DNA of 64,000 nt from an archaeon (GTDB lineage Archaea > Methanobacteriota_B > Thermococci > Methanofastidiosales > NM3), in the NCBI GenBank assembly GCA_004212155.1, contig RXIG01000028.1:1-64000 (forward strand). Direction: 5' to 3'. The position numbers and the translations under genes are program-made. Numbering within the stretch: position 1 is the stretch's first letter; each line of letters begins with the position of its first letter. The notes under the pieces are model-generated. The model worked only from the letters and a program-made list of their open reading frames with translations, was not told the DNA's origin and searched no databases. This document shows positions 2,345-32,707 of the stretch, piece after piece.

Positions 2345-3354
2345 CGGGGCGATCCATCGAGATCCATCATCTCGCTAGTGCCCCTGTAGAAGAAGACCGC
2401 ACCACCGATGAGTACCATCAGATAGTATGAAATGATCCTGTCTATGAAGACGACGGGCGCGGCGATGCTCGGGCTTACCGACGGCAGGAGCGAATAGAGT
2501 GCGATACGCCCGGACTCCACGACACCAACGCCGCCGGGCGTGAACATGAGCGGTGCCAGAAAGACCCATGCGCTGTCAAAGAGGATGAAGTAGTAGATGG
2601 GCACCGATATGTCGAACGCGCTGAACAGGATGGTCACGCGCACAGCGTCGAGGATGACCTTGCCGAATGTGAGCAGGAACGTCTCGAACGTGATGCGCGG
2701 CCTTCCGAGCAGGAGAGCAAAGTTCCTGCTGAACTCGACGAACTTCTTTGCAAGCCCGGAATGCGTGATGCGGTAGAGGCGCGGGTGCGTGCGTTGGTCT
2801 ATGCGTTCCCCGTAGTGGGAGCGTTCAATGAACAGTTCTGACGAGCTAATGATGAAGACCGCAACACCTGCAATCCCTATGAATAAGAGGCTCGACTGGA
2901 ACGTCCGTTGGAGCGACCGCGGAAGCTCATCGACCAGGAAGAGATAGCAGGGCGCTGCAAGCAGGAACGTGCCGAAGATGTCGATGCCGTAATCAAGCAC
3001 GATGGATGCGAGTCCTGTCGTCGTTGGCATCTTGTACTCCTTGTTGAGAAGCCAGGAACGTGCCGCGATGCCAAGGACCGCGGTAGGGAGGAAGGCGTTT
3101 GCGAACTTGTCGATAAGAAGGTATTGAAAGAGCGATCGAAATCGGGCGTGGTAATCGGTGGCGTTGATGAATCGGCTCCATCGCAAGGTGTGGCAAAGGA
3201 GGGACGCCGCAAACACCCCACAGGCAAGGAAGAACGCTTTAAATCCAATCTTTTTAAACGAGCTTGCTATTTCCCGGGGCCCCACGAGGAAAATGATGAT
3301 GGCAAGCAAAAGTAGTGATATAATTACTGACAAGGGTGTCCTGTAGCGCAGCAA
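2341..3354 (-). CDS. Lysylphosphatidylglycerol-synthase TM / UPF0104 flippase-like membrane protein
   Basis: Multiple TM helices, LRW, FANAFLP, TPGGVGVVE and DRIISY motifs. Start uncertain. Confidence 0.85.
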   Translation of the reverse strand: MLRYRTPLSVIISLLLLAIIIFLVGPREIASSFKKIGFKAFFLACGVFAASLLCHTLRWSRFINATDYHARFRSLFQYLLIDKFANAFLPTAVLGIAARSWLLNKEYKMPTTTGLASIVLDYGIDIFGTFLLAAPCYLFLVDELPRSLQRTFQSSLLFIGIAGVAVFIISSSELFIERSHYGERIDQRTHPRLYRITHSGLAKKFVEFSRNFALLLGRPRITFETFLLTFGKVILDAVRVTILFSAFDISVPIYYFILFDSAWVFLAPLMFTPGGVGVVESGRIALYSLLPSVSPSIAAPVVFIDRIISYYLMVLIGGAVFFYRGTSEMMDLDGSPR

Positions 3355-3455
3355 TGCGCGCTTGGCGGCATTTATCCTCTCATGTGCGGGGATACGTTCA
3401 CCTCTCTACCACCTAGTATGCTTTGCAATAAAAACCATTGCTAGCATGCACCGCC

Positions 3456-4832
3456 TCAATTGAAGCCCTTGCCGCTGTCAAGTTTCTTATAAAGGCTCTT
3501 GAACGAACCGATGCTGGCATATCTCACGCCGGGGGGAATGTTCTTGCGTGAATTGAGAAAGCCCCACCACTTCACGACGAATCCTCCGCTTGCCAGCTCC
3601 TTGAATATCTTCTTCTCACGATACTTGTAGAGCCGCAGCGACGACTCGAACGTGCGGATGTCCGAGACGGTGTCCCCGCCGTTGATGTAGAACGTGCGCG
3701 CATGGCGCAGCACCTCGCGGGCCAGATTGTATGTCGTCGACTCCTCCCCGCGCTCGAGGTATGCGGTTGGTTCCACGGAGCCTGTTTGCATGAACTGCCT
3801 GCGGGCCGATATTTCCCCAAGCATGGTAAGCGAGTTCGGGCCGAGCGAGAGGAACTTGCCTTTGTTGATGGCTGAAAGCGATACCGTCTTTTCCGTGCCT
3901 TCCGACTCCACGATGACGTCGATGGGCAGGATGACGTCGATGGCGCCTTCCTCGATCATGCGCGCGATCTGGAGCGCCTTGTTTCGTATCATGTCCCATT
4001 TCGGCCCTCCGAAGAATCTCTCGATGAGCTCCCTGTTTTGCTGTCCGATTTGATCGGGGAGTATGCGTGAAAGCGAGCGGGCCTCCTTGGCGAGCGCCCA
4101 TACGAGCAGCACGAGGATGGGTCCTCCGTTGAGCGCCACGATGAGGTCGTCGCGCCCTTCGGTAAGATAGATCGAATCGAGCTTGTCGAGCTTGGCGCCG
4201 GCCACGCCCCATATCTTCACATCATCTGAGGTGGATGAGTAAAGGTCGGTGACGGTCTGCAGTTCCCTTACGAACGAGTCGCTGCAATAACATCCGTCGG
4301 TGAAAACGCGAAGCGAGAGATGGTCCCTGTGGCAGCATGAGAGGGCGCTGTTGATCTTGTCGTATGGGCCAAGGAACTTCCAAAGCCCGGAGTCCGAGCT
4401 GTTCGTGGGCGGCTTGGTCTCCTCGGGAACGACCTTGCGGATGTTGTCAAGGAAGATCAGGTTGCCTTCCTTTTCCTTGTTCTGCCGGGAGAGCTCCTCG
4501 AACGTCTCCACGAACGTGACGCCCTCTACCTCAGGGGCGATGGGGTCGATGTGCTTTTCCAACTCCGTCCGTAGCACCTCGTAGTTCTCTTTGAGACTCC
4601 TTGTCACGTCGGATGCGTGCGAAGTGCAGAGGATGTTGGCCTTGGGGTCCTGTCGTTCCCTGATCTCGGTGATCGATGAAACGGCCTGTTCGACCTTGAG
4701 AGAAGGAGCAGGAGGCTCATTGATGTCGGTGCGAAGATAAACATCCCCGAACTCGGTCATGGAATCCTTCAATTCAGCCAAGACGATCTTGATGCCATTG
4801 GATTCAATAACATGCATGGAACCACACTGCAC
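3456..4832 (-). CDS. Highly divergent phosphoglycerate kinase-fold protein
   Basis: Ordered PGK-like motifs: LRTDINEP, TSH, LDNIR, NSALSCCHRDHLS, AGAKLDKL, LPID, LGP, NGGDT, SGG, PPGV. Confidence 0.7.
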   Translation of the reverse strand: MQCGSMHVIESNGIKIVLAELKDSMTEFGDVYLRTDINEPPAPSLKVEQAVSSITEIRERQDPKANILCTSHASDVTRSLKENYEVLRTELEKHIDPIAPEVEGVTFVETFEELSRQNKEKEGNLIFLDNIRKVVPEETKPPTNSSDSGLWKFLGPYDKINSALSCCHRDHLSLRVFTDGCYCSDSFVRELQTVTDLYSSTSDDVKIWGVAGAKLDKLDSIYLTEGRDDLIVALNGGPILVLLVWALAKEARSLSRILPDQIGQQNRELIERFFGGPKWDMIRNKALQIARMIEEGAIDVILPIDVIVESEGTEKTVSLSAINKGKFLSLGPNSLTMLGEISARRQFMQTGSVEPTAYLERGEESTTYNLAREVLRHARTFYINGGDTVSDIRTFESSLRLYKYREKKIFKELASGGFVVKWWGFLNSRKNIPPGVRYASIGSFKSLYKKLDSGKGFN

Positions 4833-4981
4833 CTATCTACCGTCTCTTTATAAATCTTATGTCAGAAGATTTTAGCCTTCTTTATACATAATTATTGTTA
4901 TAGAATTAAATATCATACCGAAATTAGGGTAGAATAATGAATTAAATATGTAAATATTTTATTATCATAAAATAGGTATGC

Positions 4982-5776
4982 TCAACGGCCGTAGCGGCGT
5001 TCTCGTTTCTGGTAGTCCCTGACGAGGCGAAGCAGGTCGATCTTGCGGAACGCAGGAAGGTAGACGTCGGTGAAGAAGAGTTCCGCGTAGGCAGCCTGGA
5101 ACAGGAGGAAGTTGGAAAGGCGGGTCTCTCCGCCCGTTCGCACGATGATGTCTGGATCGGGCAAGCTGCTTGTGAGCAGGTGCTCGCGAAGCGTCTCCAT
5201 CGTGATGTCATCAGGACTCACCGAGCCGTCCTTGGCCTTCTGGGCGATGCTCTTTACCGCAGAGACGATCTCGTCGCGAGACCCGTATGCGAGGCAGATG
5301 TTGAGGTATCGCGCGTCGTAGTCCCGCGTCGCCTCCTCAGCGTCCCGCACCGCCTTTCTCAGCTTCGGCGGCAAAGCGGCCTCGTCGCCGATGTGATTGA
5401 TGTGTATCTTCCTTTCGTGGATGCGCTCATCGGCAAGGATCGTCTCGAACCGCTCCGTAGCCAGGGTCATGATGTTTTCTATCTCCTCCTGTTGACGCCG
5501 GAAGTTTTCCGTTGAGAACGCATAGAGGGTGACAATCTTGATGCCGACATCGTAGCACCACATGATGAGCTCCTCCACCTTGTCCGCGCCAAGGGTGTGA
5601 CCGAGCATGCGCTCATACCCATGCATGGTGGCATAGCGCCTGTTGCCGTCGAGGATGAACGCGGCGTGCACAGGCACGTTCCCATTCCTCACCTGCGAGC
5701 TGAGCCTGCGCTGATAGATGCGATAGACCGGTGAGAGGAGTGCGTTTTTTATCATTGTGAGCGATAGCATCGTCAT
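4982..5776 (-). CDS. uppS: Polyprenyl (undecaprenyl-type) diphosphate synthase
   Basis: ILDGNRRY, YAFSTENF, RTGGETRLSNFL, ERRYG motifs. Confidence 0.95.
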   Translation of the reverse strand: MTMLSLTMIKNALLSPVYRIYQRRLSSQVRNGNVPVHAAFILDGNRRYATMHGYERMLGHTLGADKVEELIMWCYDVGIKIVTLYAFSTENFRRQQEEIENIMTLATERFETILADERIHERKIHINHIGDEAALPPKLRKAVRDAEEATRDYDARYLNICLAYGSRDEIVSAVKSIAQKAKDGSVSPDDITMETLREHLLTSSLPDPDIIVRTGGETRLSNFLLFQAAYAELFFTDVYLPAFRKIDLLRLVRDYQKRERRYGR

Positions 5777-6282
5777 CCTTCCACGTTCTTGTAGTGCCTT
5801 GCCAGTGTCACGTACGTAGCGGCGTTGTCGGCGATGCGTCGCCGAGCCTCTTCGCCGAGCTGGCGTATCACCTTCCCCGGAACGCCCACCACGAGCGAAT
5901 GGGGAGGTATGGAGCTGCCCTCCGTCACGAGTGCGTTGGCCGCCACGATCGATCCCTCCCCTATCTCGGCGCCGTCAAGCACCGTCGCGTTGATGCCGAT
6001 GATGCAGCGGTCCCCTATCGTGGCCCCATGGACCACGGCGCCGTGGCCTATCGTGCACTCGTCACCTATTTGCACCTCGTGCTCGACCGTGACGTGGATG
6101 GTCACGGATTCTTGTACGTTCGTGCGCTGCCCTATGACGACCCTGTTAAGGTCGCCGCGAACGCTGACAAATGGCCACACCGAGCTGTCTTTCCCCACGG
6201 TCACCCGGCCGCTTACGTATGAGCGCGAGGATATGAAGCAGGTCTCGTCTATCTTTTTCTCATCGAACATTTTTACCACCAA
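5773..6282 (-). CDS. Gamma-class carbonic anhydrase family (hexapeptide repeat) protein
   Basis: RGD, NVQE, IGH..VHG motifs and hexapeptide repeats. Confidence 0.92.
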   Translation of the reverse strand: MVVKMFDEKKIDETCFISSRSYVSGRVTVGKDSSVWPFVSVRGDLNRVVIGQRTNVQESVTIHVTVEHEVQIGDECTIGHGAVVHGATIGDRCIIGINATVLDGAEIGEGSIVAANALVTEGSSIPPHSLVVGVPGKVIRQLGEEARRRIADNAATYVTLARHYKNVEG

Positions 6283-22926: not shown

Positions 22927-23769
22927 ATGGAACAGACCATATTGGAAAAAGGATTCGAGATCGCACGGGACCTCAAGGCTGATTGCGTTCTCTATTGTGC
23001 GGAGTCGAAAAAGGACATCACGATGGCACAGGCCATGGAGCTCTACAACGAGGTCTCCCCCGTCGTCGTCATCACAGACAAAAAGCTTATGAAAAGGGAC
23101 GAACGCGAGATATTCCTCGTTACCGAGATACCCGACCTGTTCGAGAAGATACGCATCTCGATAGCGGGCGCCATGGTCAAGGAATATGCCAAGGGAGATG
23201 ACATGGTCGTCTTTATCGACACCACAGGGGCCGAGAGCGACAACGCCATCATCACAATGCGCGCTTCGCCACTCATCGACGACGGTGTCTACTCGGTTCT
23301 TTCCCACACCGGCATCATCGATCCGATGGTCATTCATTCCGTGCTCCGCATAGCGACCCAGCTTGGCAAGAAAGGGCGCGAGGGAAAGCCTGTCGGCACC
23401 ACATTTATCGTCGGCGACTCGGGCGACGTCCTCAGGCACTCGACGCAGATCACGTACAATCCTTTCGAGGGCAGCTATGTCGATATCTCGGACAAGGTCG
23501 TCACGAGCATGATCAAGGAGTACTCTCGCCTCGACGGGGCGTTTATCATCAGCGGCAAGGGCAAGATCGTCGCTGCGGCACGCTACCTGGAGAGCGGCAA
23601 GGACGACATCGTACTCCCTCAGGGCCTTGGCGCGAGGCACATGTCTGCAGCCTGGATCTCAAAGATCACCAACGCCATCGCCATCGTTTTATCGGAGTCC
23701 GACAACTTGATACGATTGTTTGCGAACGGGACGCTCATACTCGAGCTCGATCCTGCGGAACTGGGGTGA
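22927..23769 (+). CDS. dacZ: Diadenylate cyclase (archaeal DacZ type)
   Basis: GREGKPVGT, RLDGAF (DGA), GLGARH (RHR-like), LSES motifs. Confidence 0.9.
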   Translation: MEQTILEKGFEIARDLKADCVLYCAESKKDITMAQAMELYNEVSPVVVITDKKLMKRDEREIFLVTEIPDLFEKIRISIAGAMVKEYAKGDDMVVFIDTTGAESDNAIITMRASPLIDDGVYSVLSHTGIIDPMVIHSVLRIATQLGKKGREGKPVGTTFIVGDSGDVLRHSTQITYNPFEGSYVDISDKVVTSMIKEYSRLDGAFIISGKGKIVAAARYLESGKDDIVLPQGLGARHMSAAWISKITNAIAIVLSESDNLIRLFANGTLILELDPAELG

Positions 23770-23773
23770 TACC

Positions 23774-24565
23774 ATGTTGCTCGATTACAGTAAGGTCGCC
23801 GATGCGTTGTCCAGCCACGCAGAGGACTTCGTATATGTCATACTCATCCTCATCGCTGGCCTCGTCATCGGCAAGGCCGTAGGCAAGGTCATCAGGACGA
23901 TCATTGACAAGACGGGCCTCCTTCGGATTATCAAGGGAACGAAGTCACAGGAAAGCACACGCCGAACGAGCTTTTCGCTGCTCAACTTCATCGAGGCAGT
24001 GGTGCGATGGACGATATACCTCATTGCCATCGGCCAGGCGATCGAGATACTGGGATTCGAGGAGCTTACGCGTGCAATGGGTGAACTGGTCAAGTTTCTG
24101 CCCAACGTGATCATCGCGCTCGTGATCGTCATCTTCGGATTCATCGCGGCCGACAAGATCGTTTCCGCCCTTGATGACTTCTTAAGGGAGTCCAAACTTC
24201 CCAACTACACGATCATCACCTCGAGCGTGCGGTATTCGATCTACTTCATAGCCATCATCATGGCACTCGCCCAGCTGCGCATCTCGACGCAGGTGCTCGT
24301 TGTGCTCGCCGGCGTGTTCTCTTTCTTCTTTGTCGTGATCATCGCCATCGGCGCGCGGGAGATAGCAACGAACCTCTTCGCAGGCCTCCAGATCATCTGG
24401 TACCGGACAATCGCCGTGGGGGACGTCATACGAGTGGAGGACACAGAGGGTGTTGTCGACGAGATCGGCATCATCTCGACCACCGTGAAGACCGAGAACG
24501 GCGAGTACGTCATCATTCCTAACTCCCATATTGCCAACTACAAGGTGTTCAAGAAACTTTCGTGA
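23774..24565 (+). CDS. Small-conductance mechanosensitive channel (MscS family)
   Basis: TM repeats, then NLFAG..VGD.I...G.V.EIG...IPNS. Confidence 0.9.
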   Translation: MLLDYSKVADALSSHAEDFVYVILILIAGLVIGKAVGKVIRTIIDKTGLLRIIKGTKSQESTRRTSFSLLNFIEAVVRWTIYLIAIGQAIEILGFEELTRAMGELVKFLPNVIIALVIVIFGFIAADKIVSALDDFLRESKLPNYTIITSSVRYSIYFIAIIMALAQLRISTQVLVVLAGVFSFFFVVIIAIGAREIATNLFAGLQIIWYRTIAVGDVIRVEDTEGVVDEIGIISTTVKTENGEYVIIPNSHIANYKVFKKLS

Positions 24566-25281
24566 TGCCCATGTCCCAGTCTGTCGTGGCGCTGCCTCAC
24601 GATGCCGTCGGGACAGTTGTTTGTCGTGACAACAGGTTCCGCGCTCACGTTGACATCACCGAGCCGATCAGGGCAAACGGCGCTTCAGTGCACGTGCACG
24701 ACCCCGGGAGGATACGCGAGGTGATCTATCCTGGCAACACTGTCCTCCTCCGGTGGGCACGCTCCCCGACGCGCTCGACGGATTGGGACGTGCTGGCAGG
24801 CGATGTTGGCGGTGAGTGGGTGCTTGTCCATTCAGGCTATCACTCGACCATCGCAGAAGGCATACTGCGTGCAGGCCTTGCCGGCCCTTCGATACGCGGA
24901 TGCACGCTACATCGCGAGGTGACGCGGGGCGGAAGCCGCTTTGACTTCCTTCTCGAATGTGCTTCCGGGCGCCATTGGATCGAGGTCAAGGGATGCTCGC
25001 TTTCCAGAGGGGGCGTGGCGCTGTTCCCCGATGCTCCCACCACGCGCGGCACGCGCCATCTTGAAGGGCTCATCGACGCAGTTGAGAACGGTGACCGCGC
25101 TTCTGTCATCTTTCTCGTGCTCGGGCATGCCGCCACCTCGTTTTCCCCCAACAGCGATACTGACCCTCGTTTTGCTGAGGCATTCACACGCGCTGTCGAT
25201 GCCGGGGTCACGGTCTACCCGCTGCGCTGCACCTACGACGGGTGCGATGTATCGTACCATCGTGTGCTCCCCGTGAGATGA
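24562..25281 (+). CDS. sfsA: DNA/RNA nuclease SfsA
   Basis: NRF, DPGR, SRFDFLL, EVKG, FPDAPTTRGTRHL motifs. Confidence 0.94.
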   Translation: MMPMSQSVVALPHDAVGTVVCRDNRFRAHVDITEPIRANGASVHVHDPGRIREVIYPGNTVLLRWARSPTRSTDWDVLAGDVGGEWVLVHSGYHSTIAEGILRAGLAGPSIRGCTLHREVTRGGSRFDFLLECASGRHWIEVKGCSLSRGGVALFPDAPTTRGTRHLEGLIDAVENGDRASVIFLVLGHAATSFSPNSDTDPRFAEAFTRAVDAGVTVYPLRCTYDGCDVSYHRVLPVR

Positions 25282-25297
25282 GCGAAGATATTTAAGC

Positions 25298-25645
25298 ATG
25301 GCAGACATACGTCCTCCCATGAAGTACGAAGTGTTTTACGGCAAGGGTATGAAGAGGGTAAAGGAACGCCTTCCGGACCTTTATGAGAGCATAGCCTCGC
25401 TTAACGAGTCGGTATTCAACGGGACGACGCTAGACTACAAGACCCAAAAGCTCATCGCAATCGGCATAGCGGCCTCACGCTGCGACTCCGATGCGACGAA
25501 AAAGCAGATGCGCTCGAGCATGAACGAGCTCGAAGTCACAGAGGACGAGATCATCGACGTCCTGCGCGTGGTGCTCCTACTCTCGGGAATGCCGGCATTC
25601 AATCAGGGCATGCGCCTCCTCGACGAGATCACGTCCGAGAAGTAG
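25298..25645 (+). CDS. Carboxymuconolactone decarboxylase (CMD/AhpD-like) family protein
   Basis: LDYKTQKLIAIG...EDEI..V...SGMPA. Confidence 0.88.
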   Translation: MADIRPPMKYEVFYGKGMKRVKERLPDLYESIASLNESVFNGTTLDYKTQKLIAIGIAASRCDSDATKKQMRSSMNELEVTEDEIIDVLRVVLLLSGMPAFNQGMRLLDEITSEK

Positions 25646-25655
25646 GCCAGGCGCA

Positions 25656-26153
25656 CTAGAGCCGCTTTCGCGCAAGCTCATAGTAATTGATGTCGCTTTC
25701 CTCGTCAACGAGGGCGATTATCATCTGCTTCTTTACAGAATGGGCTAGGCGCACATAGCGCACGAGCGCCTCTGCAGGAATGTTCTCGGGCGCCTTGTAC
25801 GCATGGACGAGGTAGTCGGCGTGCTCTTCCACCGAAGTACGATATACCCTGAAGTGACACCCGTACTTGAACCCGGTCTTGACTATATAGCCCTTGTCAC
25901 GCAGGTCTTTGTAGACGGTGTAGCGTGTCGAGAAGTCGGGCCCCGCAAGGCGGCGCCAAAGATCCCCACTACTTAGCGTGGTATCATCGATTTTGATCTC
26001 AAGCTTTCCCCGCTCGTGAAGGTATGTCGCCTCGATCGCCGAAAGATGGAGCGTCCCCTCCTTCACGACACCATACGAGCGTTTGCTATGGAGTGCCGAG
26101 ACCGAACGAGAATCAGTGACAAGTACCTCGTCATTGAGCAGTTCGCCGATCAT
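25656..26153 (-). CDS. endA: tRNA-intron endonuclease (single-unit, alpha4 type)
   Basis: VYKDLRDKG, TGFKYG, FRVY, H, RLAHSVKK; about 165 aa. Confidence 0.95.
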   Translation of the reverse strand: MIGELLNDEVLVTDSRSVSALHSKRSYGVVKEGTLHLSAIEATYLHERGKLEIKIDDTTLSSGDLWRRLAGPDFSTRYTVYKDLRDKGYIVKTGFKYGCHFRVYRTSVEEHADYLVHAYKAPENIPAEALVRYVRLAHSVKKQMIIALVDEESDINYYELARKRL

Positions 26154-26206
26154 GATGTTCCTTGCGAGGATGCAATTATATGGTTTTTGCATGAAGTGCG
26201 GCCAGT

Positions 26207-26635
26207 TCAGGAAAGGATGCCCAGATGCGCAAGCCTCGTTTCGAGGGCGTTTTCAAAGTCTTCCTTCATTTCCTTCCCATCGATGCGAAAGAACTCATTG
26301 AATGCCTCATCGTAGACGAGCAGTTGTGGCATCTTGTCATCGTCTGTCACGTTGAGTTCGACAAAGACCTGTTCGTCAAAGATCCGCATCTCTATCTTTG
26401 GATTGTCCATGAGGAGGTAGAGGCGGATGATCATGGGGATGGTGGCGATACAATATGGACATCTCTTCGCCGTTGCCACGGCCACGTAGATGGAGCGTTC
26501 AAATCCCTGCAACGCTTCGACGATCCGTTGTTGTGGTTCATACCGCTGGTATTTTTTCTTGAAGTAGTAGTTTTTCAGCTGTTCTTCAAGATATGGGACG
26601 ACCTCCTCCCCCCTCATGAATTTTTGGCGATTCAT
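26207..26635 (-). CDS. Thioredoxin-like protein
   Basis: CPYC motif followed by cis-Pro-like MPQ. Confidence 0.7.
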   Translation of the reverse strand: MNRQKFMRGEEVVPYLEEQLKNYYFKKKYQRYEPQQRIVEALQGFERSIYVAVATAKRCPYCIATIPMIIRLYLLMDNPKIEMRIFDEQVFVELNVTDDDKMPQLLVYDEAFNEFFRIDGKEMKEDFENALETRLAHLGILS

Positions 26636-26708
26636 TACACATCAGCAACCGTGGTTATTTATAAATATTGTCCTTTGTTCTCAAAACATTATACAAAAAA
26701 TAAGAATA

Positions 26709-27398
26709 TCATTCATGCACTGTGGTACCTACGCGTTCTCCGCGCACGAGGCGAACGATGCGTTCAGGGTCGCTTCCATTCACGAAGTGGAGCCGTATGT
26801 GAGAGCGCACGAGGTTGTTCACGGCGACCGTGTCGAACAGTTCATACTGTCCCGCACCAGCACCCGATGCCGAAACGATCTCTCGAAGCTCGGCGTATGT
26901 GGCGTCCTCGAGGGGGCGCGCGTCATCGTATCGTGAGGGGTCCTTGTCGTAGAGGTAGTCAACGTCGGTGGCGTTGACGAGGTGGTCTGCCCCCATGGCC
27001 TCGCACAGGAGCGTTGCAACGGCATTGGTCGACTGTCCCGGCTGCATGCCGCCGGCTACGACCATCCTTCCCTCTCGCAGCTGTCGCACCATTTCGTCAT
27101 AGGTCTGGGGAGGGTATGGGGCTGCAAGGTCGGAAAGGCGCGAGATGAATAGCATCGCATTCATGCGCGTTGCCATGACCGCCACGAAGTCCTTGTCCGC
27201 CTGGCCGTAGTCCGGTGCGAGCCCGCGTATGTACGAGCGTGCCGTGGCACCGCCCCCCACGACGATGCCAACTGCGTGGCCCTCCCCTGCCAGCGTTCGA
27301 ACGGCATCACACATCGCGTCGATGCGCGAGGTGCGGATATTTCCATCTTCAAAGAGGAGTGATCCTCCATATTTAATCACTAGGTCCATCTTTTTCAC
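26709..27398 (-). CDS. pyrH: UMP kinase
   Basis: KYGGS, VGGG..AR.YI, PGQSTNAVA, T.VD..Y..DP motifs. Confidence 0.95.
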   Translation of the reverse strand: MKKMDLVIKYGGSLLFEDGNIRTSRIDAMCDAVRTLAGEGHAVGIVVGGGATARSYIRGLAPDYGQADKDFVAVMATRMNAMLFISRLSDLAAPYPPQTYDEMVRQLREGRMVVAGGMQPGQSTNAVATLLCEAMGADHLVNATDVDYLYDKDPSRYDDARPLEDATYAELREIVSASGAGAGQYELFDTVAVNNLVRSHIRLHFVNGSDPERIVRLVRGERVGTTVHE

Positions 27399-27625
27399 TC
27401 ATCAAGCATTATGGTCGTTTCTGTATTTTTCACACCCGGGATGGCGCGTATTGTAAAGAATACGAATTTAGAGAGTGCTTTCATGTTCTCGTGTTCCACG
27501 AACGCGACAACGTCATGCAGCGAGTCGACCTTGGCAACGAAGACGACCTCGTCCTTGCCCTCCAACTCATCGATGACCGTATCGGGGTCTAGCGCCTTGA
27601 TTCCAATCAATCCTTTCGTGGTCAT
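27395..27625 (-). CDS. Stand-alone Lrp/AsnC ligand-binding (RAM) domain protein
   Basis: HDVVAFV...IRAIPGVKNTET; no HTH. Confidence 0.8.
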   Translation of the reverse strand: MTTKGLIGIKALDPDTVIDELEGKDEVVFVAKVDSLHDVVAFVEHENMKALSKFVFFTIRAIPGVKNTETTIMLDE

Positions 27626-27634
27626 GCTCTCACC

Positions 27635-27889
27635 TCATGGGACGAACTTGAGCGGATGAACGTCGAGCACTCCCTCGACCTTCTTCAGTCGTTTGAGAAG
27701 GGCCGGTACGTCGCTATGATCCAGCGTAAGGAAGACGATTACATCAAAGCTGCCAAACGATTTGAATGTATGTGAGATGCCAGCAAGCGATCCGGATTCA
27801 TTGCATACGGTATCTTCCATGCCGGGTACGATTTTGAGTCCTACGATTGCCGTGACGCCTTCGTAGGAAGCACGATCGACCATATTCAT
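27635..27889 (-). CDS. Stand-alone Lrp/AsnC ligand-binding (RAM) domain protein
   Basis: PG.E..V, FGSFDVIV, LKKVEGV; no HTH. Confidence 0.75.
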   Translation of the reverse strand: MNMVDRASYEGVTAIVGLKIVPGMEDTVCNESGSLAGISHTFKSFGSFDVIVFLTLDHSDVPALLKRLKKVEGVLDVHPLKFVP

Positions 27890-27984
27890 TCTATTATTCC
27901 CATCCTTATATATTTATTCTTGAAGCGGCGCTGCACGCATCGTCAGCACCAACGAACGAAACGATGAGCGCCAGATCAACAAGT

Positions 27985-29169
27985 TCAACCCTCGCGATGG
28001 GATTGCAGTTCGGAGATTCGCTCTACGACGCGTTCCCCGTTCAGTTCTGTGATACAGCCCTTCTCGGCCAGCTTCTCCTCGATGGACGGTGTCAAAGGGA
28101 TACGGACCCCCGTGATGACAGGATAGCCGTGATGTACGAGGGCAAGGGTCGAGGTGAGGATCTTGGCGTTCTTCCACCCAGGCACCAACACGAACGGCGT
28201 GGGGGCAAATCCCTTTCCATGCATCTTTCCTATTTCGCAGAATCCTATATGGACTACGCCCGGAGCGTTCATGGCATCGGTGCTCCCCTCATACATATGC
28301 GCCCCGGTCACGAGCACGAGGTAGCCATGTTCCACCAAATCGGTGACGAGCCCTTCCATGTGCCATGAGCACGTTGGGCTTGCCGCTCCGAACAGGACAA
28401 CGACGCCTTCTATGTTCCCCCTCTCGTACGCACGATTGATCGCCGTCACATCGAGCGTGGCGCCTGTCGTGTGCATCTTTGGCTCAGGGAGCTCGCATTG
28501 GGGCCCCTTGCGCGACGCGAAGTGTTTGAGCGCCTCTTCAAGCGAGGCACGTTCGCTTCCGAACGTATGGATGGCGTCTATGCATCCTGTCGCCAGCGCA
28601 TTGTCAAGTACGAGGTAGTTGCCAATGCACGGTATGCCCCGTTGATACGCCAGTTCGGCGCCCGGATAGCCAAGGGAGACGATGTTGACCCCATGCGCTC
28701 CGGCACATTCGATGTTTTCAGCTGCCTCGGGCGTACGGGTGAACTCGATCAGGTCATGAATGCCCCGGGGTGAGGAGACTGCGCAGATGTTAACGGCCTC
28801 TGGGCGCAGCCCTCCCAGCCCAAAAGGTACCGTGCGCACCGTTCGATAGGGCGAAAGGAGCTTATCTATCTCGTCTGAATAGGATCGGGATACATCGACC
28901 ATCCGGGTGGCGGCCTCAAGAAGACTTTCCATGTCATATACCATGGTGATATGTCGTTTGTGCGTCTTGTATTCCCCCAACCCCTCTGCAATCTTTTCAG
29001 CCAGATTCTTCATGGCCATCTCGTCTGGCGTTATGCCGCAGGGCACCCGCGACGTGCTGCCGTCAAACGTGCACGGGCCCAGGTCGCACGCATCGCAGAC
29101 AAGGCCCATCCGCAGTTCGTCCCGCACATGCGCCTGTTCCCTGATGCCGTCAAAGATCTTCTCATACAT
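27985..29169 (-). CDS. Truncated, degenerate CooS (Ni-CODH)/HCP-superfamily homolog
   Basis: CDACDLGPC...CG, GLG.L....VNI, AGA.GVN, ATG.ID, G.I.GVV, LVL.TG, HIGFC; most C-cluster ligands missing. Confidence 0.8.
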   Translation of the reverse strand: MYEKIFDGIREQAHVRDELRMGLVCDACDLGPCTFDGSTSRVPCGITPDEMAMKNLAEKIAEGLGEYKTHKRHITMVYDMESLLEAATRMVDVSRSYSDEIDKLLSPYRTVRTVPFGLGGLRPEAVNICAVSSPRGIHDLIEFTRTPEAAENIECAGAHGVNIVSLGYPGAELAYQRGIPCIGNYLVLDNALATGCIDAIHTFGSERASLEEALKHFASRKGPQCELPEPKMHTTGATLDVTAINRAYERGNIEGVVVLFGAASPTCSWHMEGLVTDLVEHGYLVLVTGAHMYEGSTDAMNAPGVVHIGFCEIGKMHGKGFAPTPFVLVPGWKNAKILTSTLALVHHGYPVITGVRIPLTPSIEEKLAEKGCITELNGERVVERISELQSHREG

Positions 29170-29362
29170 ATATGACCACCCACGGAGTTGTCTGAGCATC
29201 TTTCACGCCGTATTAAAGGTTTTCTATGTATTTTATAAGGTGCGTCATCCCCGTATGTCTGGCGCAACGGAATGAGTTTCGCCGCAATCCCATATCATAA
29301 GGGATAATTATTTAATATGCAAAACGGAGATGTAGGCACTGTAATACAACGGAGGTGTTTTA

Positions 29363-29464
29363 TTGAAAAATTGCAATGAGCAACACAAATGTTTTGGTAA
29401 GTGTGTTCGCCCGAAGGGACACGATGGCAAACATCTGTGTGGAAACTGTGGTATGGAGTTCTAA
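29363..29464 (+). CDS. Cys/His-rich microprotein (33 aa), probable metal-binding peptide
   Basis: GGAGGTG RBS at 29351, TTG start, MKNCNEQHKCFGKCVRPKGHDGKHLCGNCGMEF, then a T-rich terminator-like tract. Confidence 0.7.
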   Translation: MKNCNEQHKCFGKCVRPKGHDGKHLCGNCGMEF

Positions 29465-29550
29465 CTCTCACCGCAAACACTGAATCATAGCTTTACTTTT
29501 TCTCTTCCTCTCTTTTATGGGTAAGGGAACGAGCCGATGAGGTACGGTCC

Positions 29551-29730
29551 CTATTTTGATTCTTCATCCAACATCGTGAGTATCTGCTGTATCTCCTTGT
29601 TGATCTCGCTTACTTCTGCGTGCATCTTGTTGAGCTCTGTGAGATACTCATTTGTCGTGTGCTCATACATCTTGAGTTTCGTCTCATAGACGGTAAGACG
29701 TTCCTTCAATATCTTCAGCTGTTCCTCCAT
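29551..29730 (-). CDS. Small coiled-coil protein
   Basis: MEEQLKILKERLTVYETKLKMYE heptad pattern; TATA-like box upstream. Confidence 0.65.
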   Translation of the reverse strand: MEEQLKILKERLTVYETKLKMYEHTTNEYLTELNKMHAEVSEINKEIQQILTMLDEESK

Positions 29731-29845
29731 ACTGTAGTATATGTCGTTCAAATCTATATATCTTTGGATGGCCACGCATGCACCACATGACGGTACAAGA
29801 TCCGTGAATTTATAAGTAGGCGAACAAGTATGTAATGCAACGATC

Positions 29846-29985
29846 ATGGCTTCGATAGATTTCTCACGTCCATCACTCATCGCGGCCATAGCCTTTATCC
29901 TCGTATGGTATTTTTTGGGCTATTGGCCGCCATAGTGATCGGGATAATAGTGCTTTTGCTCACGGACACCATTAAGATCAGATAG
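29846..29985 (+). pseudogene. Small two-helix membrane protein broken by a 1-nt frameshift in a T6 run
   Basis: Adding one T gives MASIDFSRPSLIAAIAFILVWYFFGLLAAIVIGIIVLLLTDTIKIR; TTTATAA box upstream. Confidence 0.55.
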
Positions 29986-30078
29986 GTACGTCGCAGGCAT
30001 TCCGGGTGTGCGTGCGAGTAACAATATATTTTTAATGCTACCCGCCGTATGCAGTCCAACGCTGTATTTTGTGATATC

Positions 30079-30834
30079 ATGCGCGTAGAATTGATCGCTG
30101 TGACCCCTTTTCCCCTTGTCAAGCAGGGTGATGACATTGGTTCGCTCATACTCGAATCCCTCGGATCGATGGGCATTTCCCTCGAGGAGGGCGATGCCGT
30201 TGTCGTCGCATCGACCATCGTCTCCAAGGCGGAGGGAACGCTCATCGACCTCACCACCGTAACACCTTCCGAACGGGCACTCATACTGTCTTCCACAACC
30301 GGCAAGGACCCTCGATTGTGCGAGGCGATCCTGCGTGCATCGAAACAGATACTCAAGGTGGGTCCCGGCCCCATCATCGCCGAGACGCACCACGGATTCA
30401 TATGCGCGTCTGCAGGCATCGACACGTCGAACGTGGCGGGCAACAACGATATCGTGTGCACCTTGCCAAATGACCCGGACATGTCTGCCCGCACCATCCG
30501 CGCCAAGCTTGAGGAGACATTCGATACGCGCGTCGCAGTCATCGTCTCAGATACCCAGGGACGTCCATTTCGCATCGGCGCCCTCGGGGTTTCGGTGGGC
30601 CTTTCCGGCATTGACCCCGTATGGCGCTACAAGGGGGAAAAGGACCTCTACGGCTATACGCTCAATGCGAGCGTCATTGCGCGTGCAGACGAGATCGCAG
30701 CCGCGGCAGACCTCGTGATGGGGCAGTCAAACGAGGGTATACCCGTCGTCATAGTGCGCGGTGCGCGCTATCGTCGTTCGGAAGATCCTGCCACCACTTA
30801 CATACGAGATGTGCAAAACGACCTCTTCAGGTGA
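30079..30834 (+). CDS. cofE: Coenzyme F420-0:L-glutamate ligase
   Basis: IVSKAEG, AGIDTSN, LP.DPD.SA, DTQGRPFR, DEIAAAADLVMG motifs. Confidence 0.94.
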   Translation: MRVELIAVTPFPLVKQGDDIGSLILESLGSMGISLEEGDAVVVASTIVSKAEGTLIDLTTVTPSERALILSSTTGKDPRLCEAILRASKQILKVGPGPIIAETHHGFICASAGIDTSNVAGNNDIVCTLPNDPDMSARTIRAKLEETFDTRVAVIVSDTQGRPFRIGALGVSVGLSGIDPVWRYKGEKDLYGYTLNASVIARADEIAAAADLVMGQSNEGIPVVIVRGARYRRSEDPATTYIRDVQNDLFR

Positions 30835-30876
30835 CCTCGTGGCAACGCTTATTAATGTGTGAGATAACGTCGTCAT

Positions 30877-31926
30877 ATGCGCATTCTCCACAAGGACGTG
30901 TCAAAGGGCGTAGTGAAGGTCAAGGTGGAGTCCATCGATGACCTATGGCATCTCTCGCATGTCATAGAGGAGGGAGACGTCGTCTACGACGTCACGTATC
31001 GCCGTCAGCAAGCCCAACAGGATGTTATACGGTCAAGCAAGACCGAGAAGGTGCGCATGTACCTTGGCGTGCGCGTCGAGAAGATTGAGTTCTCACACTA
31101 TTCAGATTCACTTCGGCTCACCGGCGTGATCGTGGAAGGTGACCAGACGGGCAACTATCATACGCTCTCGATCGAGCCGCAGAGCACGCCAAAGATCGTC
31201 AAGTCGTGGAGACCGTTCCAGCTCGATAGGCTCAACGAGGCTGTACGCTCGTCAAAGGAGCCGCGTATCCTCATCGTTGCGATCGATGAGGGGGAGGCAG
31301 ACTTTGGCATCGTCAAGCAGTACGGCATCGACTTTGCCGTTTCCATATCCCGGTCGATACCAGGCAAGCGCGATACCTCCAACAGGAAGAGTGAGAAGGA
31401 GTCTTTTTTCAAGGAGGTCGCTGACAAGTTATCGTCCTACCTTGACGAGCTCAACATACCCTCGGCCATCGTCGCAGGGCCGGGATTCGTCAAGGATGAG
31501 TTTCAGGAATGGGCGAAAGAACACGCCCCGTCCCTGGCATCAAATCTGCACATCAAGAGCATATCCGTCACCGGCGGGCCGGGCATACTCGAGGTCGTCA
31601 AGCGCGGATACGTCGAAGAGATATACGAGCAATCACGTGCCGCCTCGGAGATCACGCTTATGGAATCGTTCTTTCAAAAGATCCTCACGGACGATGCCGT
31701 CTACGGGCTCGAAGAGGTGCGCACGGCGGTCATGAACTCGCAGGCTGAGTACGTCGTCGTCACCGACGAGATGCTGAGAAACTCCGAGGAGGCTCAGGAG
31801 ATAATCGAGCATGCCAAGAACGTGCGTTCCACACCGCACATCATCTCCACCGACCATGAGGGCGGAGAGAAGCTGCGAAGCCTCGGGGGCATCGGTGCGG
31901 CGCTTCGATTCAAGCTCACCTATTGA
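30877..31926 (+). CDS. pelA: mRNA surveillance protein Pelota
   Basis: DDLWHL, PGK, AGPGF, LGGIGA.LRF motifs. Confidence 0.96.
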   Translation: MRILHKDVSKGVVKVKVESIDDLWHLSHVIEEGDVVYDVTYRRQQAQQDVIRSSKTEKVRMYLGVRVEKIEFSHYSDSLRLTGVIVEGDQTGNYHTLSIEPQSTPKIVKSWRPFQLDRLNEAVRSSKEPRILIVAIDEGEADFGIVKQYGIDFAVSISRSIPGKRDTSNRKSEKESFFKEVADKLSSYLDELNIPSAIVAGPGFVKDEFQEWAKEHAPSLASNLHIKSISVTGGPGILEVVKRGYVEEIYEQSRAASEITLMESFFQKILTDDAVYGLEEVRTAVMNSQAEYVVVTDEMLRNSEEAQEIIEHAKNVRSTPHIISTDHEGGEKLRSLGGIGAALRFKLTY

Positions 31927-32707
31927 TCGATACGACATTCGCTCCATTGTCGTCCTCTATCGTGATGTATCCGCCCTCCTCAAGACGCTTCATCATGCGC
32001 CATGTGGAGGTCTTTGGGATGTTGAACTCCTTTCTGAGGTCCGACTCTCGTACACGGCCCCGTTCCCAGACATGTCGAAGCACACGTTTCTCGAGCGCAT
32101 CTAATCCCTCTTTCTCATCCCATGGGAAGGACCTTTTTCGCATGCGGTAGAGAAGGTATGCTACCGCACCCACAATAGGGATGGCAATGAGCGCAATGCC
32201 CGAGGGGCGGCGATCCTCTTGTTGCGTCCCTTCGAGTTCGAGATAGTAATCGACCGTGAGCGCCCCACCGGAAAACGTCAAGGTGCCGGCATCGAGGTCT
32301 ATCTCGCTTGGCATGGGGTCGACGGATACTATCGTCGTTGAAGCTGGCAACTGCAGCGTCGTCTGTCCACCGGCATCAAGCGACACTGTCCACAGCGCGC
32401 CGTCCTTTGATGTGAGCATGGACGTCTCGTAACGTATAACGACAGCGCCCTCACCAAGCGTATAGGCCACGAGCAAGGCATCGACCACATCGTAGTGTAC
32501 TGGTTCGAATGATCCGGTGGCGACCGAGAGGTTCTCGTAGTCACCGGTGAGCAGCACGGCCTCCACCGTACCCCCCATGTCGTTAACAGAAATGAAATGC
32601 TCAATCTCTGCATATCCGTCCCTGTAGAGGGTGACGGAGGTGTCGGCCGCACATGTGGCAAAAGAAGAGAGCAGCATGACGATGGCAAGGACACATGCTC
32701 GTCTCAT
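31916..32707 (-). CDS. Membrane-anchored protein with extracellular beta domain and C-terminal winged HTH (COG2512-like)
   Basis: Signal peptide, one TM helix, ESDLRKEFNIPKTSTWRMMKRLEEGG. Confidence 0.8.
   Translation of the reverse strand: MRRACVLAIVMLLSSFATCAADTSVTLYRDGYAEIEHFISVNDMGGTVEAVLLTGDYENLSVATGSFEPVHYDVVDALLVAYTLGEGAVVIRYETSMLTSKDGALWTVSLDAGGQTTLQLPASTTIVSVDPMPSEIDLDAGTLTFSGGALTVDYYLELEGTQQEDRRPSGIALIAIPIVGAVAYLLYRMRKRSFPWDEKEGLDALEKRVLRHVWERGRVRESDLRKEFNIPKTSTWRMMKRLEEGGYITIEDDNGANVVSINR

Follow-up and report, generated by a model that had tools for sequence, protein, structure and literature searches.

The DNA analysed here (the window) is a stretch of 64,000 nucleotides from an archaeon of the Methanofastidiosales, lineage NM3 (contig RXIG01000028.1 of assembly GCA_004212155.1), and it carries on its minus strand the gene of a minimal protein with the fold of the carbon monoxide dehydrogenases (CODHs). 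A preliminary description of the locus, made by reading the letters alone, had taken the product for a CODH-like pseudoenzyme that keeps only the B-cluster, and translation of the window confirmed the open reading frame (ORF) given there, with 394 codons and no internal stops. The gene and its orthologues are referred to below as the M-type; the T-type is a sister subfamily of ~392 residues, 28–30% identical to the M-type, from records titled Theionarchaea. An alternative ATG lies upstream at 29199 and would lengthen the protein by ten residues. Comparison of the sequences makes 29169 the likelier start, because the extension ('MKDAQTTLWEVVE') is not conserved in a 92%-identical orthologue of the same genus, which has 'MLRQLRGWSY' ahead of the common MYEKIF, and because most orthologues begin MY(D/E)(K/R)I. 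The features of the locus are collected in Table 1.

Table 1. Features of the M-type locus, in coordinates of the window
Feature	Position	Strand	Basis and remarks
TATA-like box TTATAAAATA	29229..29238	-	By sequence reading; 30 nucleotides before ATG 29199, 60 nucleotides before ATG 29169
Minimal CODH-fold protein gene (M-type), 394 residues	27985..29169, stop codon included	-	ORF and translation
B-cluster motif C-x2-C-x4-C-x10-C, codons C25–C44	29038..29097	-	Aligned to B-cluster Cys of full-length CODHs
C129 (VNICA)	28783..28785	-	Invariant in M-type; Val in T-type and full-length CODHs; putative ligand
C181 (GIPCIGN)	28627..28629	-	Invariant in M-type; Phe/Leu in T-type; putative ligand
C267 (SPTCSW)	28369..28371	-	Invariant in M-type; Ser in T-type; five residues past A262 (C446 position)
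C311-E312 (GFCE)	28234..28239	-	C311 is the C526 equivalent; both invariant in M-type and T-type
K336 (PGWKNAK)	28162..28164	-	K563 equivalent; Lys in M-type, Arg in T-type
84-residue ORF, directly downstream of M-type gene	27635..27889	-	Own TATA-like box 27906–27915
76-residue stand-alone Lrp/AsnC ligand-binding (RAM) protein	27395..27625	-	PF01037, E 3e-10; stop overlaps pyrH start

The family is small. Among 5.8 billion proteins, a word-indexed search picked out 24 matches, ten of them clusters of 363–404 residues (E ≤ 1.8e-97, 43–100% identity) and 14 of them CODHs of 635–653 residues (E ≥ 3.6e-9). When 1.84 billion representatives were searched exhaustively with HMMER, 41 matches were obtained at E ≤ 0.001, the three at E ≤ 1e-30 all being of 389–396 residues. 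Among 61 related genomes, ten have a match at E ≤ 1e-10, distributed by family, with the window's own genome excluded, as 5/6 (f1), 0/6 (f2), 0/17 (f3), 3/4 (f4) and 1/27 (f5). The f5 match was rejected as a family member; it is a frame of 671 residues aligned over residues 70–200 only, and so a full-length CODH. Eight loci were found in a scan of one genome per species, in metagenome-assembled genomes from records titled Methanofastidiosia, Theionarchaea, 'Thermococci', 'Methanomicrobia' or 'Halobacteria' archaeon, and a further scan of metagenomes gave eight loci. As far as these sequence searches reach, the family is found only in Methanofastidiosales-type archaea. The ESM Atlas returned only bacterial Prismane clusters of 493–574 residues (scores 0.91–0.92), which are leads and not demonstrated relatives.

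Intact M-type orthologues of ~383–404 residues extend down to 40% identity over several genera, and 87 of the 394 columns (22%) are invariant. Against the orthologue of the same genus, the nonsynonymous and synonymous rates over 394 codons are dN 0.042 and dS 0.317, a dN/dS of 0.13. Given the orthologues, this ratio and a confident CODH-like fold model, the gene is judged to be real and under selection, and not a pseudogene. A functionless, decaying remnant of cooS would account for the extensive internal deletions and the missing catalytic ligands that are described below, but it is hardly credible in the face of an open frame, a low dN/dS, intact orthologues in several genera, the many invariant columns and a very confident fold prediction. 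The check that the preliminary description had proposed, by way of orthologues and dN/dS, thus speaks for a maintained gene, the orthologues sharing its ligand pattern.

Membership of the superfamily is clear from the Pfam Prismane model (PF03063), which matches in two stretches at 62.7 bits against a gathering cut-off of 27, whereas the NCBIfam equivalog for CooS (TIGR01702) scores 66.9 bits, below its cut-off of 478. The best solved relatives by sequence (HMMER) are CODHs, that of D. vulgaris at E 1.6e-13; no chain of a hybrid cluster protein (HCP) appeared at E ≤ 1 in this search of solved-structure sequences, and nor did the HCP model TIGR01703 at E ≤ 1. The AlphaFold2 model, built on an alignment of 57 rows, has a predicted local distance difference test (pLDDT) score of 93.9 and a predicted template modelling (pTM) score of 0.92, and it matches the three-domain CODH/HCP fold with its two Rossmann-like domains. 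CODHs occupy all of the Foldseek matches listed (ranks 1–50), the best at E 3.7e-19. VIA-align, a structure search independent of Foldseek, gave Z 28.1 to CODH 6ytt_B (root mean square deviation 2.3 Å, 389 residues aligned), Z 26.8 to CooS-V 7b7q (2.5 Å, 390 residues), Z 24.4 to the class III HCP 7e0l (3.6 Å, 341 residues), Z 18.7 to a class I HCP and Z 17.9 to a CdhA-type chain. Since 389 of the 394 residues of the model superpose on CODH, nearly the entire protein corresponds to the CODH core.

The metal sites tell a different story from the fold. Ligands were called from MAFFT alignments with orthologues and full-length CODHs (A1 and A2), with which a HMMER alignment to D. vulgaris CODH agrees. 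For the B-cluster, the D-cluster, H93 and K563, we use the position numbers that we take to apply to these sites. The four B-cluster cysteines, CxxCxxxxC...CG, are present as C25, C28, C33 and C44 and are invariant in all 26 rows of a joint alignment of the two subfamilies. This alignment combines 13 rows of alignment A4 with 13 locus translations, several of which duplicate one sequence; left out were P0002 (the window protein with the longer start), P0008 (cut at the N terminus, with the M-type pattern in A1), L020 and L040 (both the 92%-identical contig), and L046 (a fragment). Both D-cluster positions are occupied by residues other than Cys in all family members (A1 and A2), and the N-terminal helical domain is shortened as well, by ~120 alignment columns.

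The ligands of the Ni-Fe-S C-cluster are, in CODH-II numbering, H261, C295, C333, C446, C476 and C526 (PMC10502027). In the H261 region, the M-type reads VNICAVS-SP against VNxxVHGHEP, and neither His of the HGH is kept (V131, S133). In the C295 region, GYPGAE stands against CCTxNE, with Y168 at the ligand position; the second Cys of this pair is the canonical ligand, because the first is the residue altered in a D. vulgaris entry titled 'C301S variant'. The C333 hairpin falls within a deletion of ~42 columns, the C446 and C476 positions are A262 and A290, and Y67 stands at the H93 position. Thus, five of the six ligands are absent, and the C526 equivalent alone remains, together with the K563 equivalent. 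Because the same pattern is found in all 19 aligned M-type rows (among them duplicates of single sequences obtained by different routes), it is beyond chance. To judge from the alignments, a canonical C-cluster cannot be assembled by this protein. The formal alignments thereby bear out the ligand assignments that the preliminary description had made by eye at every point, from the clusters and the C333 deletion to the Tyr at H93, as well as its conclusion that the C-cluster cannot be built. The His/Glu/Cys ligand set of the HCPs is missing too: the H261 position lacks a His, and Cys is found at neither the C446 nor the C476 position.

The rest of the genome, which is 89.8% complete, gives some context. 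It encodes McrA; CdhC/ACS was not found in it, and no CdhA match reached the cut-off. This agrees with the reported loss of the Wood–Ljungdahl pathway in Methanofastidiosaceae and f__NM3 (PMC9635834). The only other Prismane protein of the genome, encoded on another contig (C22; L001:1441-3354, minus strand), has 637 residues and, at 746 bits, passes TIGR01702. Its C295 position is occupied by Glu, another Glu stands two residues before the catalytic Lys, and the other ligands are retained, an HCP-like pattern that matches CooS-V / group D-1 (PMC10502027, PMC6344411). The preliminary description had advised looking for an intact cooS; a full-length paralogue does exist, but its C295 is replaced. 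Beside it lie a MinD-type ATPase with a 2x[4Fe-4S] insert (L001:3460-4326, minus strand) and, nearby, an ORF with a flavodoxin fold (L001:418-903, plus strand). Two candidate partners elsewhere in the genome, a CooF-like gene beside an FrhB/FdhB-like gene on contig C16 and a membrane [NiFe]-hydrogenase/Mrp cluster with a polyferredoxin on C22, were set aside, neither being near the mini gene.

Could the M-type nonetheless be a minimal but true CODH, oxidizing CO or reducing CO2 at a non-canonical metal cluster with another ligand set? In favour of this, it retains the fold, the B-cluster and the equivalents of C526 and K563, and the operon of the sister subfamily, described below, is arranged like CooF-CODH-hydrogenase clusters. 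Judged by its sequence, the proposal is nevertheless improbable. H261, C295, C333, C446 and C476 are all gone, the TIGR01702 score is a small fraction of the cut-off, and CdhC/ACS was not detected in the nearly nine-tenths of the genome that is available. No CooF or hydrogenase gene adjoins the mini gene, and the MinD/Fer4-type ATPase adjoins the other Prismane paralogue instead. Finally, CooS-V, in which the change of ligands is less drastic, is reported to be without CO activity (10.1101/2025.09.14.676152; PMC10502027). Rather than an enzyme that oxidizes CO, the M-type is probably a novel kind of small redox protein.

A possible basis for such a function lies in cysteines that the preliminary description overlooked. 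Beyond the B-cluster, the M-type has four invariant Cys, C129, C181, C267 and C311, while the remaining Cys of the window protein (155, 196, 225 and 372) are not conserved. The T-type has five, at 168 (the C295 position), 262 (C446), 290 (C476) and 310/311 (C526), and has V129, F/L181 and S267 in place of the M-type cysteines; like the M-type, it has neither the H261-position His nor the C333 hairpin. In the joint alignment the split is perfect, 19/19 M-type rows against 7/7 T-type rows, with A262 and A290 alongside C129, C181, C267 and C311 in every M-type row. In effect, three cysteines are lost and three gained around one that is shared. E312, K315, W332 and Y67 are invariant in both subfamilies. 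From this exchange, we suggest a Cys4 site that has shifted and would hold a nickel-free cluster in the region of the old active site.

As the preliminary description had recommended, the M-type was also modelled as a homodimer; four 4Fe-4S ligands were included. The interface score ipSAE has a median of 0.67 over three runs (0.59–0.69), compared with 0.00 for the best of three controls, although it may simply echo the CODH homodimers that have already been solved, and because of these it is to be read as likeness and not as proof of dimerization. Such a mark is reached by 20 of 30 proteins solved as same-chain pairs, compared with 1 of 23 proteins known from single-chain structures. Contact agreement between the runs is at least 92%, and the pLDDT of the partner is at least 88. 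In each chain the interface includes residues 24–45, which include the B-cluster Cys, 264–267, 331–335, 355 and 358, with residue 186 in one chain; residues 264–267, the last of which is C267, contact a partner whose own interface includes 24–45. In the model, the M-type would form a homodimer of the CODH type.

It was proposed earlier that the protein might instead be an inactive partner in a CODH heterodimer. An inactive or regulatory subunit paired with a full-length CODH-type paralogue would make sense of the retention of the region by which CODH-fold proteins dimerize, and the 637-residue CooS-V-like paralogue is present both in the genome of the window and in its closest relative. The distribution of the two genes, however, fits this poorly. 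Four genomes (G002, G003, G004 and G006, which are 96, 93, 96 and 84% complete) have the mini gene, and no CooS frame of ~637 residues was found in them. Frames of 526–551 residues in G002–G005 match the whole Prismane profile and probably encode HCPs. Conversely, a Prismane match of some sort is present in 14 of the 17 f3 genomes, of which ten contain a full-length frame of ~637 residues; none of the 17 has the mini gene. Because the mini gene does not track the paralogue across relatives, an obligate heterodimer is unlikely. The two genes lie on different contigs, the homodimer model passes its controls, and the sole paralogue is itself altered at C295; the idea strikes us as very improbable.

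The setting of the T-type provides a further clue. In all four T-type loci (L014:5657-14798, which is the same locus as L010 and L025; L011/L026; L012/L027; and L045), the gene lies between a ferredoxin of 154 residues, before it, and an ORF of 163 residues, after it. A Pfam scan of L014 identified the ferredoxin as Fer4_11 (CooF/HydN-like) and the 163-residue ORF as MnhE, which is followed by MnhG, MnhB, NuoK-like and NuoL-like genes and then by NuoB, NuoC, NuoD, NuoH and a 2x[4Fe-4S] (NuoI-type) protein. The NuoD-like large subunit contains RICGICSMSH and a C-terminal DPCFCC, the nickel-binding motifs of group-4 [NiFe]-hydrogenases, and thus both of the Cys pairs of such enzymes. The same architecture, CooF-CODH-hydrogenase, is that of the CO-dependent hydrogen-evolving clusters. 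By analogy, the T-type protein is probably still the redox head of a membrane complex, and its locus could be a previously undescribed respiratory module. Genes for DisA_N and MscS flank both types of locus, with 49% and 35% identity, respectively, to the copies in the window (BLASTP); they lie at 22927-24565 (plus strand) in the window, ~3.4 kb from the mini gene, and at L014:15323-16984 (plus strand), directly beside the T-type operon. Because the pair flanks both, the arrangement fits a shared ancestral locus for the M-type and the T-type.

Taken together, these observations can be accommodated as follows. The M-type is the CooS fold less most of the N-terminal helical domain, the D-cluster Cys and the C333 hairpin. 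Its old active-site pocket would still be occupied, C129, C181, C267 and C311 holding a different, nickel-free Fe-S cluster, perhaps assisted by E312, K336 and Y67 and wired to the B-cluster of the partner subunit. The protein would then serve as a small oxidoreductase or electron-transfer module with two clusters and a substrate other than CO. It would descend from a dehydrogenase module feeding a CooF-like ferredoxin and an Mrp/[NiFe]-hydrogenase membrane complex, an arrangement that persists in the Theionarchaeal sister, while the lineage of the window would have lost the coupling at this locus. For this reading as a whole, from the two clusters and the relocated nickel-free site to descent from a CooF/Mrp/hydrogenase-linked module, we would put the chances at about even.

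Several points weigh against it, besides the caution attached to the dimer score. With 22% of columns invariant, four invariant Cys among eight outside the B-cluster have a binomial p of ~0.08. In relatives, hydrophobic residues (V, L, F, I, M) stand at positions 129 and 181, and C129 falls inside a β-strand of the model (126–130), so that C129 and C181 could be residues of the core rather than ligands. That C129, C181, C267 and C311 converge on one site is a prediction from the sequence. No ferredoxin, maturation or partner gene is conserved beside the M-type gene in the loci compared, and no RNA contig of the two collections described below (X13 and X20) overlaps the gene, a result that is uninformative either way.

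Some of these points favour the notion, which is that of the preliminary description, of a protein with a B-cluster only, in which the C-site is vestigial, the extra Cys are core or structural residues and the single cluster acts as an electron relay, redox sensor or scaffold. The loss of five of six C-cluster ligands, the hydrophobic character of 129 and 181, the weak significance of the Cys invariance and the lack of maturation or partner genes nearby would all be expected of it. It does not, however, explain the strict three-for-three exchange of cysteines between the subfamilies, nor the conservation of C311-E312, the K336 position, W332 and Y67, all of the former active site, across subfamilies of such low identity, and a scaffold of 394 residues with two Rossmann domains is large for a single cubane. 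Because of the cysteine exchange and the conserved former active-site residues, we favour two clusters, which seem to us about as probable as the contrary, over one, which on the sequence evidence we regard as possible but the weaker candidate. The retention of the B-cluster claimed at the outset therefore stands; the word 'only' does not stand unchallenged, as a relocated second site is a live alternative.

More speculatively, the two subfamilies together might constitute a new class of the CODH/HCP superfamily, built on a scaffold of ~390 residues around a nickel-free Cys4 centre whose ligands would have migrated from 168/262/290 in the T-type to 129/181/267 in the M-type with the cluster staying in place. 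The Theionarchaeal form would be the substrate-oxidizing head of a respiratory complex of CooF, Mrp and group-4 [NiFe]-hydrogenase, and the methanogen form a free-standing protein with a new substrate. We put this forward tentatively and would not expect all of it to hold.

Comparison with known systems places the protein closest to the CooS-type CODHs (TIGR01702), such as those of C. autoethanogenum (6ytt), D. vulgaris (6b6v) and C. hydrogenoformans (CODH-II, 1su6), which it most resembles in its working and to which it is nearer than to HCP in both sequence and structure. The core fold, the B-cluster motif, the C526 and K563 equivalents and the type of the modelled homodimer are alike. In contrast, the M-type is ~240 residues shorter, lacks the Cys of the D-cluster and all but one of the six C-cluster ligands, and has no CooC, CooF or hydrogenase neighbours at its locus. 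A CODH scaffold without a C-cluster is also found in CooS-V (clade D; C. hydrogenoformans CODH-V, 7b7q), which carries an Fe-S-O hybrid-type cluster (PMC10502027). Unlike the M-type, CooS-V is full length (629 residues) and keeps the interfacial cluster. The CooS-V-like paralogue differs in the same sense, with only the C295 position altered, whereas in the M-type five ligand positions and two large segments are gone.

The class III HCP of M. marburgensis (7e0l) is likewise small and homodimeric, has a Cys-rich cubane site at its N terminus and lacks the interfacial D-cluster (PMC10502027), and in these features the M-type, as a small member of the superfamily, would resemble it. Its ligands, His193, Glu217, Cys261, Cys347, Cys375, Cys400 and Glu434 (PMC10502027), are absent as a set from the aligned positions of the M-type. 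Also shortened by internal deletions is the mini-CooS of Thermosinus carboxydivorans (clade G), of 428–482 residues and encoded near cooF (PMC3328121). In PMC3328121, all 11 of its cluster Cys, and the His as well, are described as conserved, and the M-type, with 5 of those 12 residues, is set apart by that description. By the features that define CooS, HCP and Thermosinus mini-CooS, the M-type protein belongs with none of them and is a member of the Prismane superfamily only. Thus, CODH scaffolds with clusters other than the C-cluster (CooS-V) and small homodimeric relatives (class III HCP) are known, and this variant is new. A literature search, whose scope did not extend to supplementary material, found no description of the minimal family. 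It is a rare, previously undescribed minimal variant of the CODH/HCP superfamily, with a function that we infer.

The superfamily has served as a model for the evolution of different metal clusters on one scaffold, from class III HCP to CooS-V to Ni-CODH (PMC10502027), and the minimal form, as the smallest natural CODH scaffold, should be useful for the study and engineering of cluster assembly. With its Theionarchaeal sister, it would offer a natural before-and-after pair for the relocation of ligands. Three published surveys of CODHs discarded sequences of less than 550 residues (PMC6344411) or less than 400 residues (PMC8776680; 10.1101/2025.09.14.676152), sequences with missing ligands were discarded as well in PMC6344411 and PMC8776680, and in the preprint 10.1101/2025.09.14.676152 ambiguous sequences were screened for key clusters. 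Because of these filters on length and ligands, minimal proteins are systematically removed. Two shortened public CODH-like proteins, P0038 (472 residues) and P0047 (518 residues), keep the B-cluster motif and are altered at C-cluster positions (alignment A5), and the nearest matches in the ESM Atlas were bacterial Prismane clusters of similar size. CODH-like proteins with few ligands may thus be commoner than is apparent from the surveys. There is a warning for annotation here too, as a public record gives one orthologue the name 'anaerobic carbon-monoxide dehydrogenase catalytic subunit', and a CODH name would wrongly imply CO metabolism in a methanogen lineage; in the genome concerned, McrA was found and CdhC was not.

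The surroundings of the M-type gene are well-conserved. Four loci from two collections are collinear over ~12 kb, and the window has the same order, namely pelota and cofE, then divergently the mini gene, a small ORF of ~80–87 residues, an ORF of 76–82 residues with a RAM domain and pyrH, followed by a thioredoxin-fold protein (CPYC), a tRNA-splicing endonuclease, a CMD-family protein, sfsA, MscS, DisA_N and AMMECR1. The Pfam scan covered the ORFs of the window apart from pelota, MscS, DisA_N and AMMECR1; these four, and all gene names in the other loci, come from reading of the sequences, with the DisA_N and MscS pairs also compared by BLASTP. Because this neighbourhood is a housekeeping block, its synteny says little on function. 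The thioredoxin-fold protein (Thioredoxin_9; 26207-26635, minus strand) and the CMD/AhpD-family protein (25298-25645, plus strand), which occur in the same block across genera, are redox-related, yet pyrH and the tRNA-splicing endonuclease gene are placed among them. In L021, one of the four collinear loci, from a genome of the same genus, three extra ORFs (2527-5782, minus strand) stand between cofE and the mini gene and divergent to it; as read from the starts of the ORFs, their N termini resemble those of the large subunit of a [NiFe]-hydrogenase, of a maturation protease and of a hydrogenase small subunit.

The 84-residue ORF has a counterpart of 80–87 residues after the mini gene in five M-type loci (L005, L006, L008, L009 and L044), whereas L047, another of the four collinear loci, has no small ORF on the mini-gene strand between the mini gene and pyrH. 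It gave no match in Pfam (E ≤ 0.01), NCBIfam (E ≤ 0.001) or the PDB sequences (E ≤ 10). Its assignment as a RAM domain was rejected, as a weak BLASTP match of 41 residues to the 76-residue RAM protein (E 0.097) was all that pointed that way. RAM-type neighbours are syntenic in most M-type loci and absent beside the Theionarchaeal form. Because the mini gene and the 84-residue ORF each have a TATA-like box, called against the archaeal promoter consensus, separate transcripts are suggested. The preliminary description had wondered whether the neighbouring RAM sensors and microproteins were part of one module with the mini gene; given their place in a housekeeping block, the separate TATA-like box and their absence beside the T-type, this is not supported.

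RNA-library contigs (X13) cover only 27300-27368 and 27593-27836, that is, pyrH and the two small ORFs, and metatranscriptome contigs (X20) cover only 29441-29600. An RNA gene upstream was sought and rejected; neither a tRNA nor any Rfam family (E ≤ 0.01) was detected within 25000-32000, and the folding energy of 29290-29480 is ordinary (z-scores −0.69 and −0.85). One contig in the DNA runs X1 and X3 spans 29296-29467 and 29549-29600 at a word depth of 20–27, compared with ~3 for the M-type gene in the same runs. Between the two stretches, 71 different letters replace 81 in this contig, and on the stretches themselves there are 7 and 6 differences. In the genome of the window, the region 29296-29600 is single copy.

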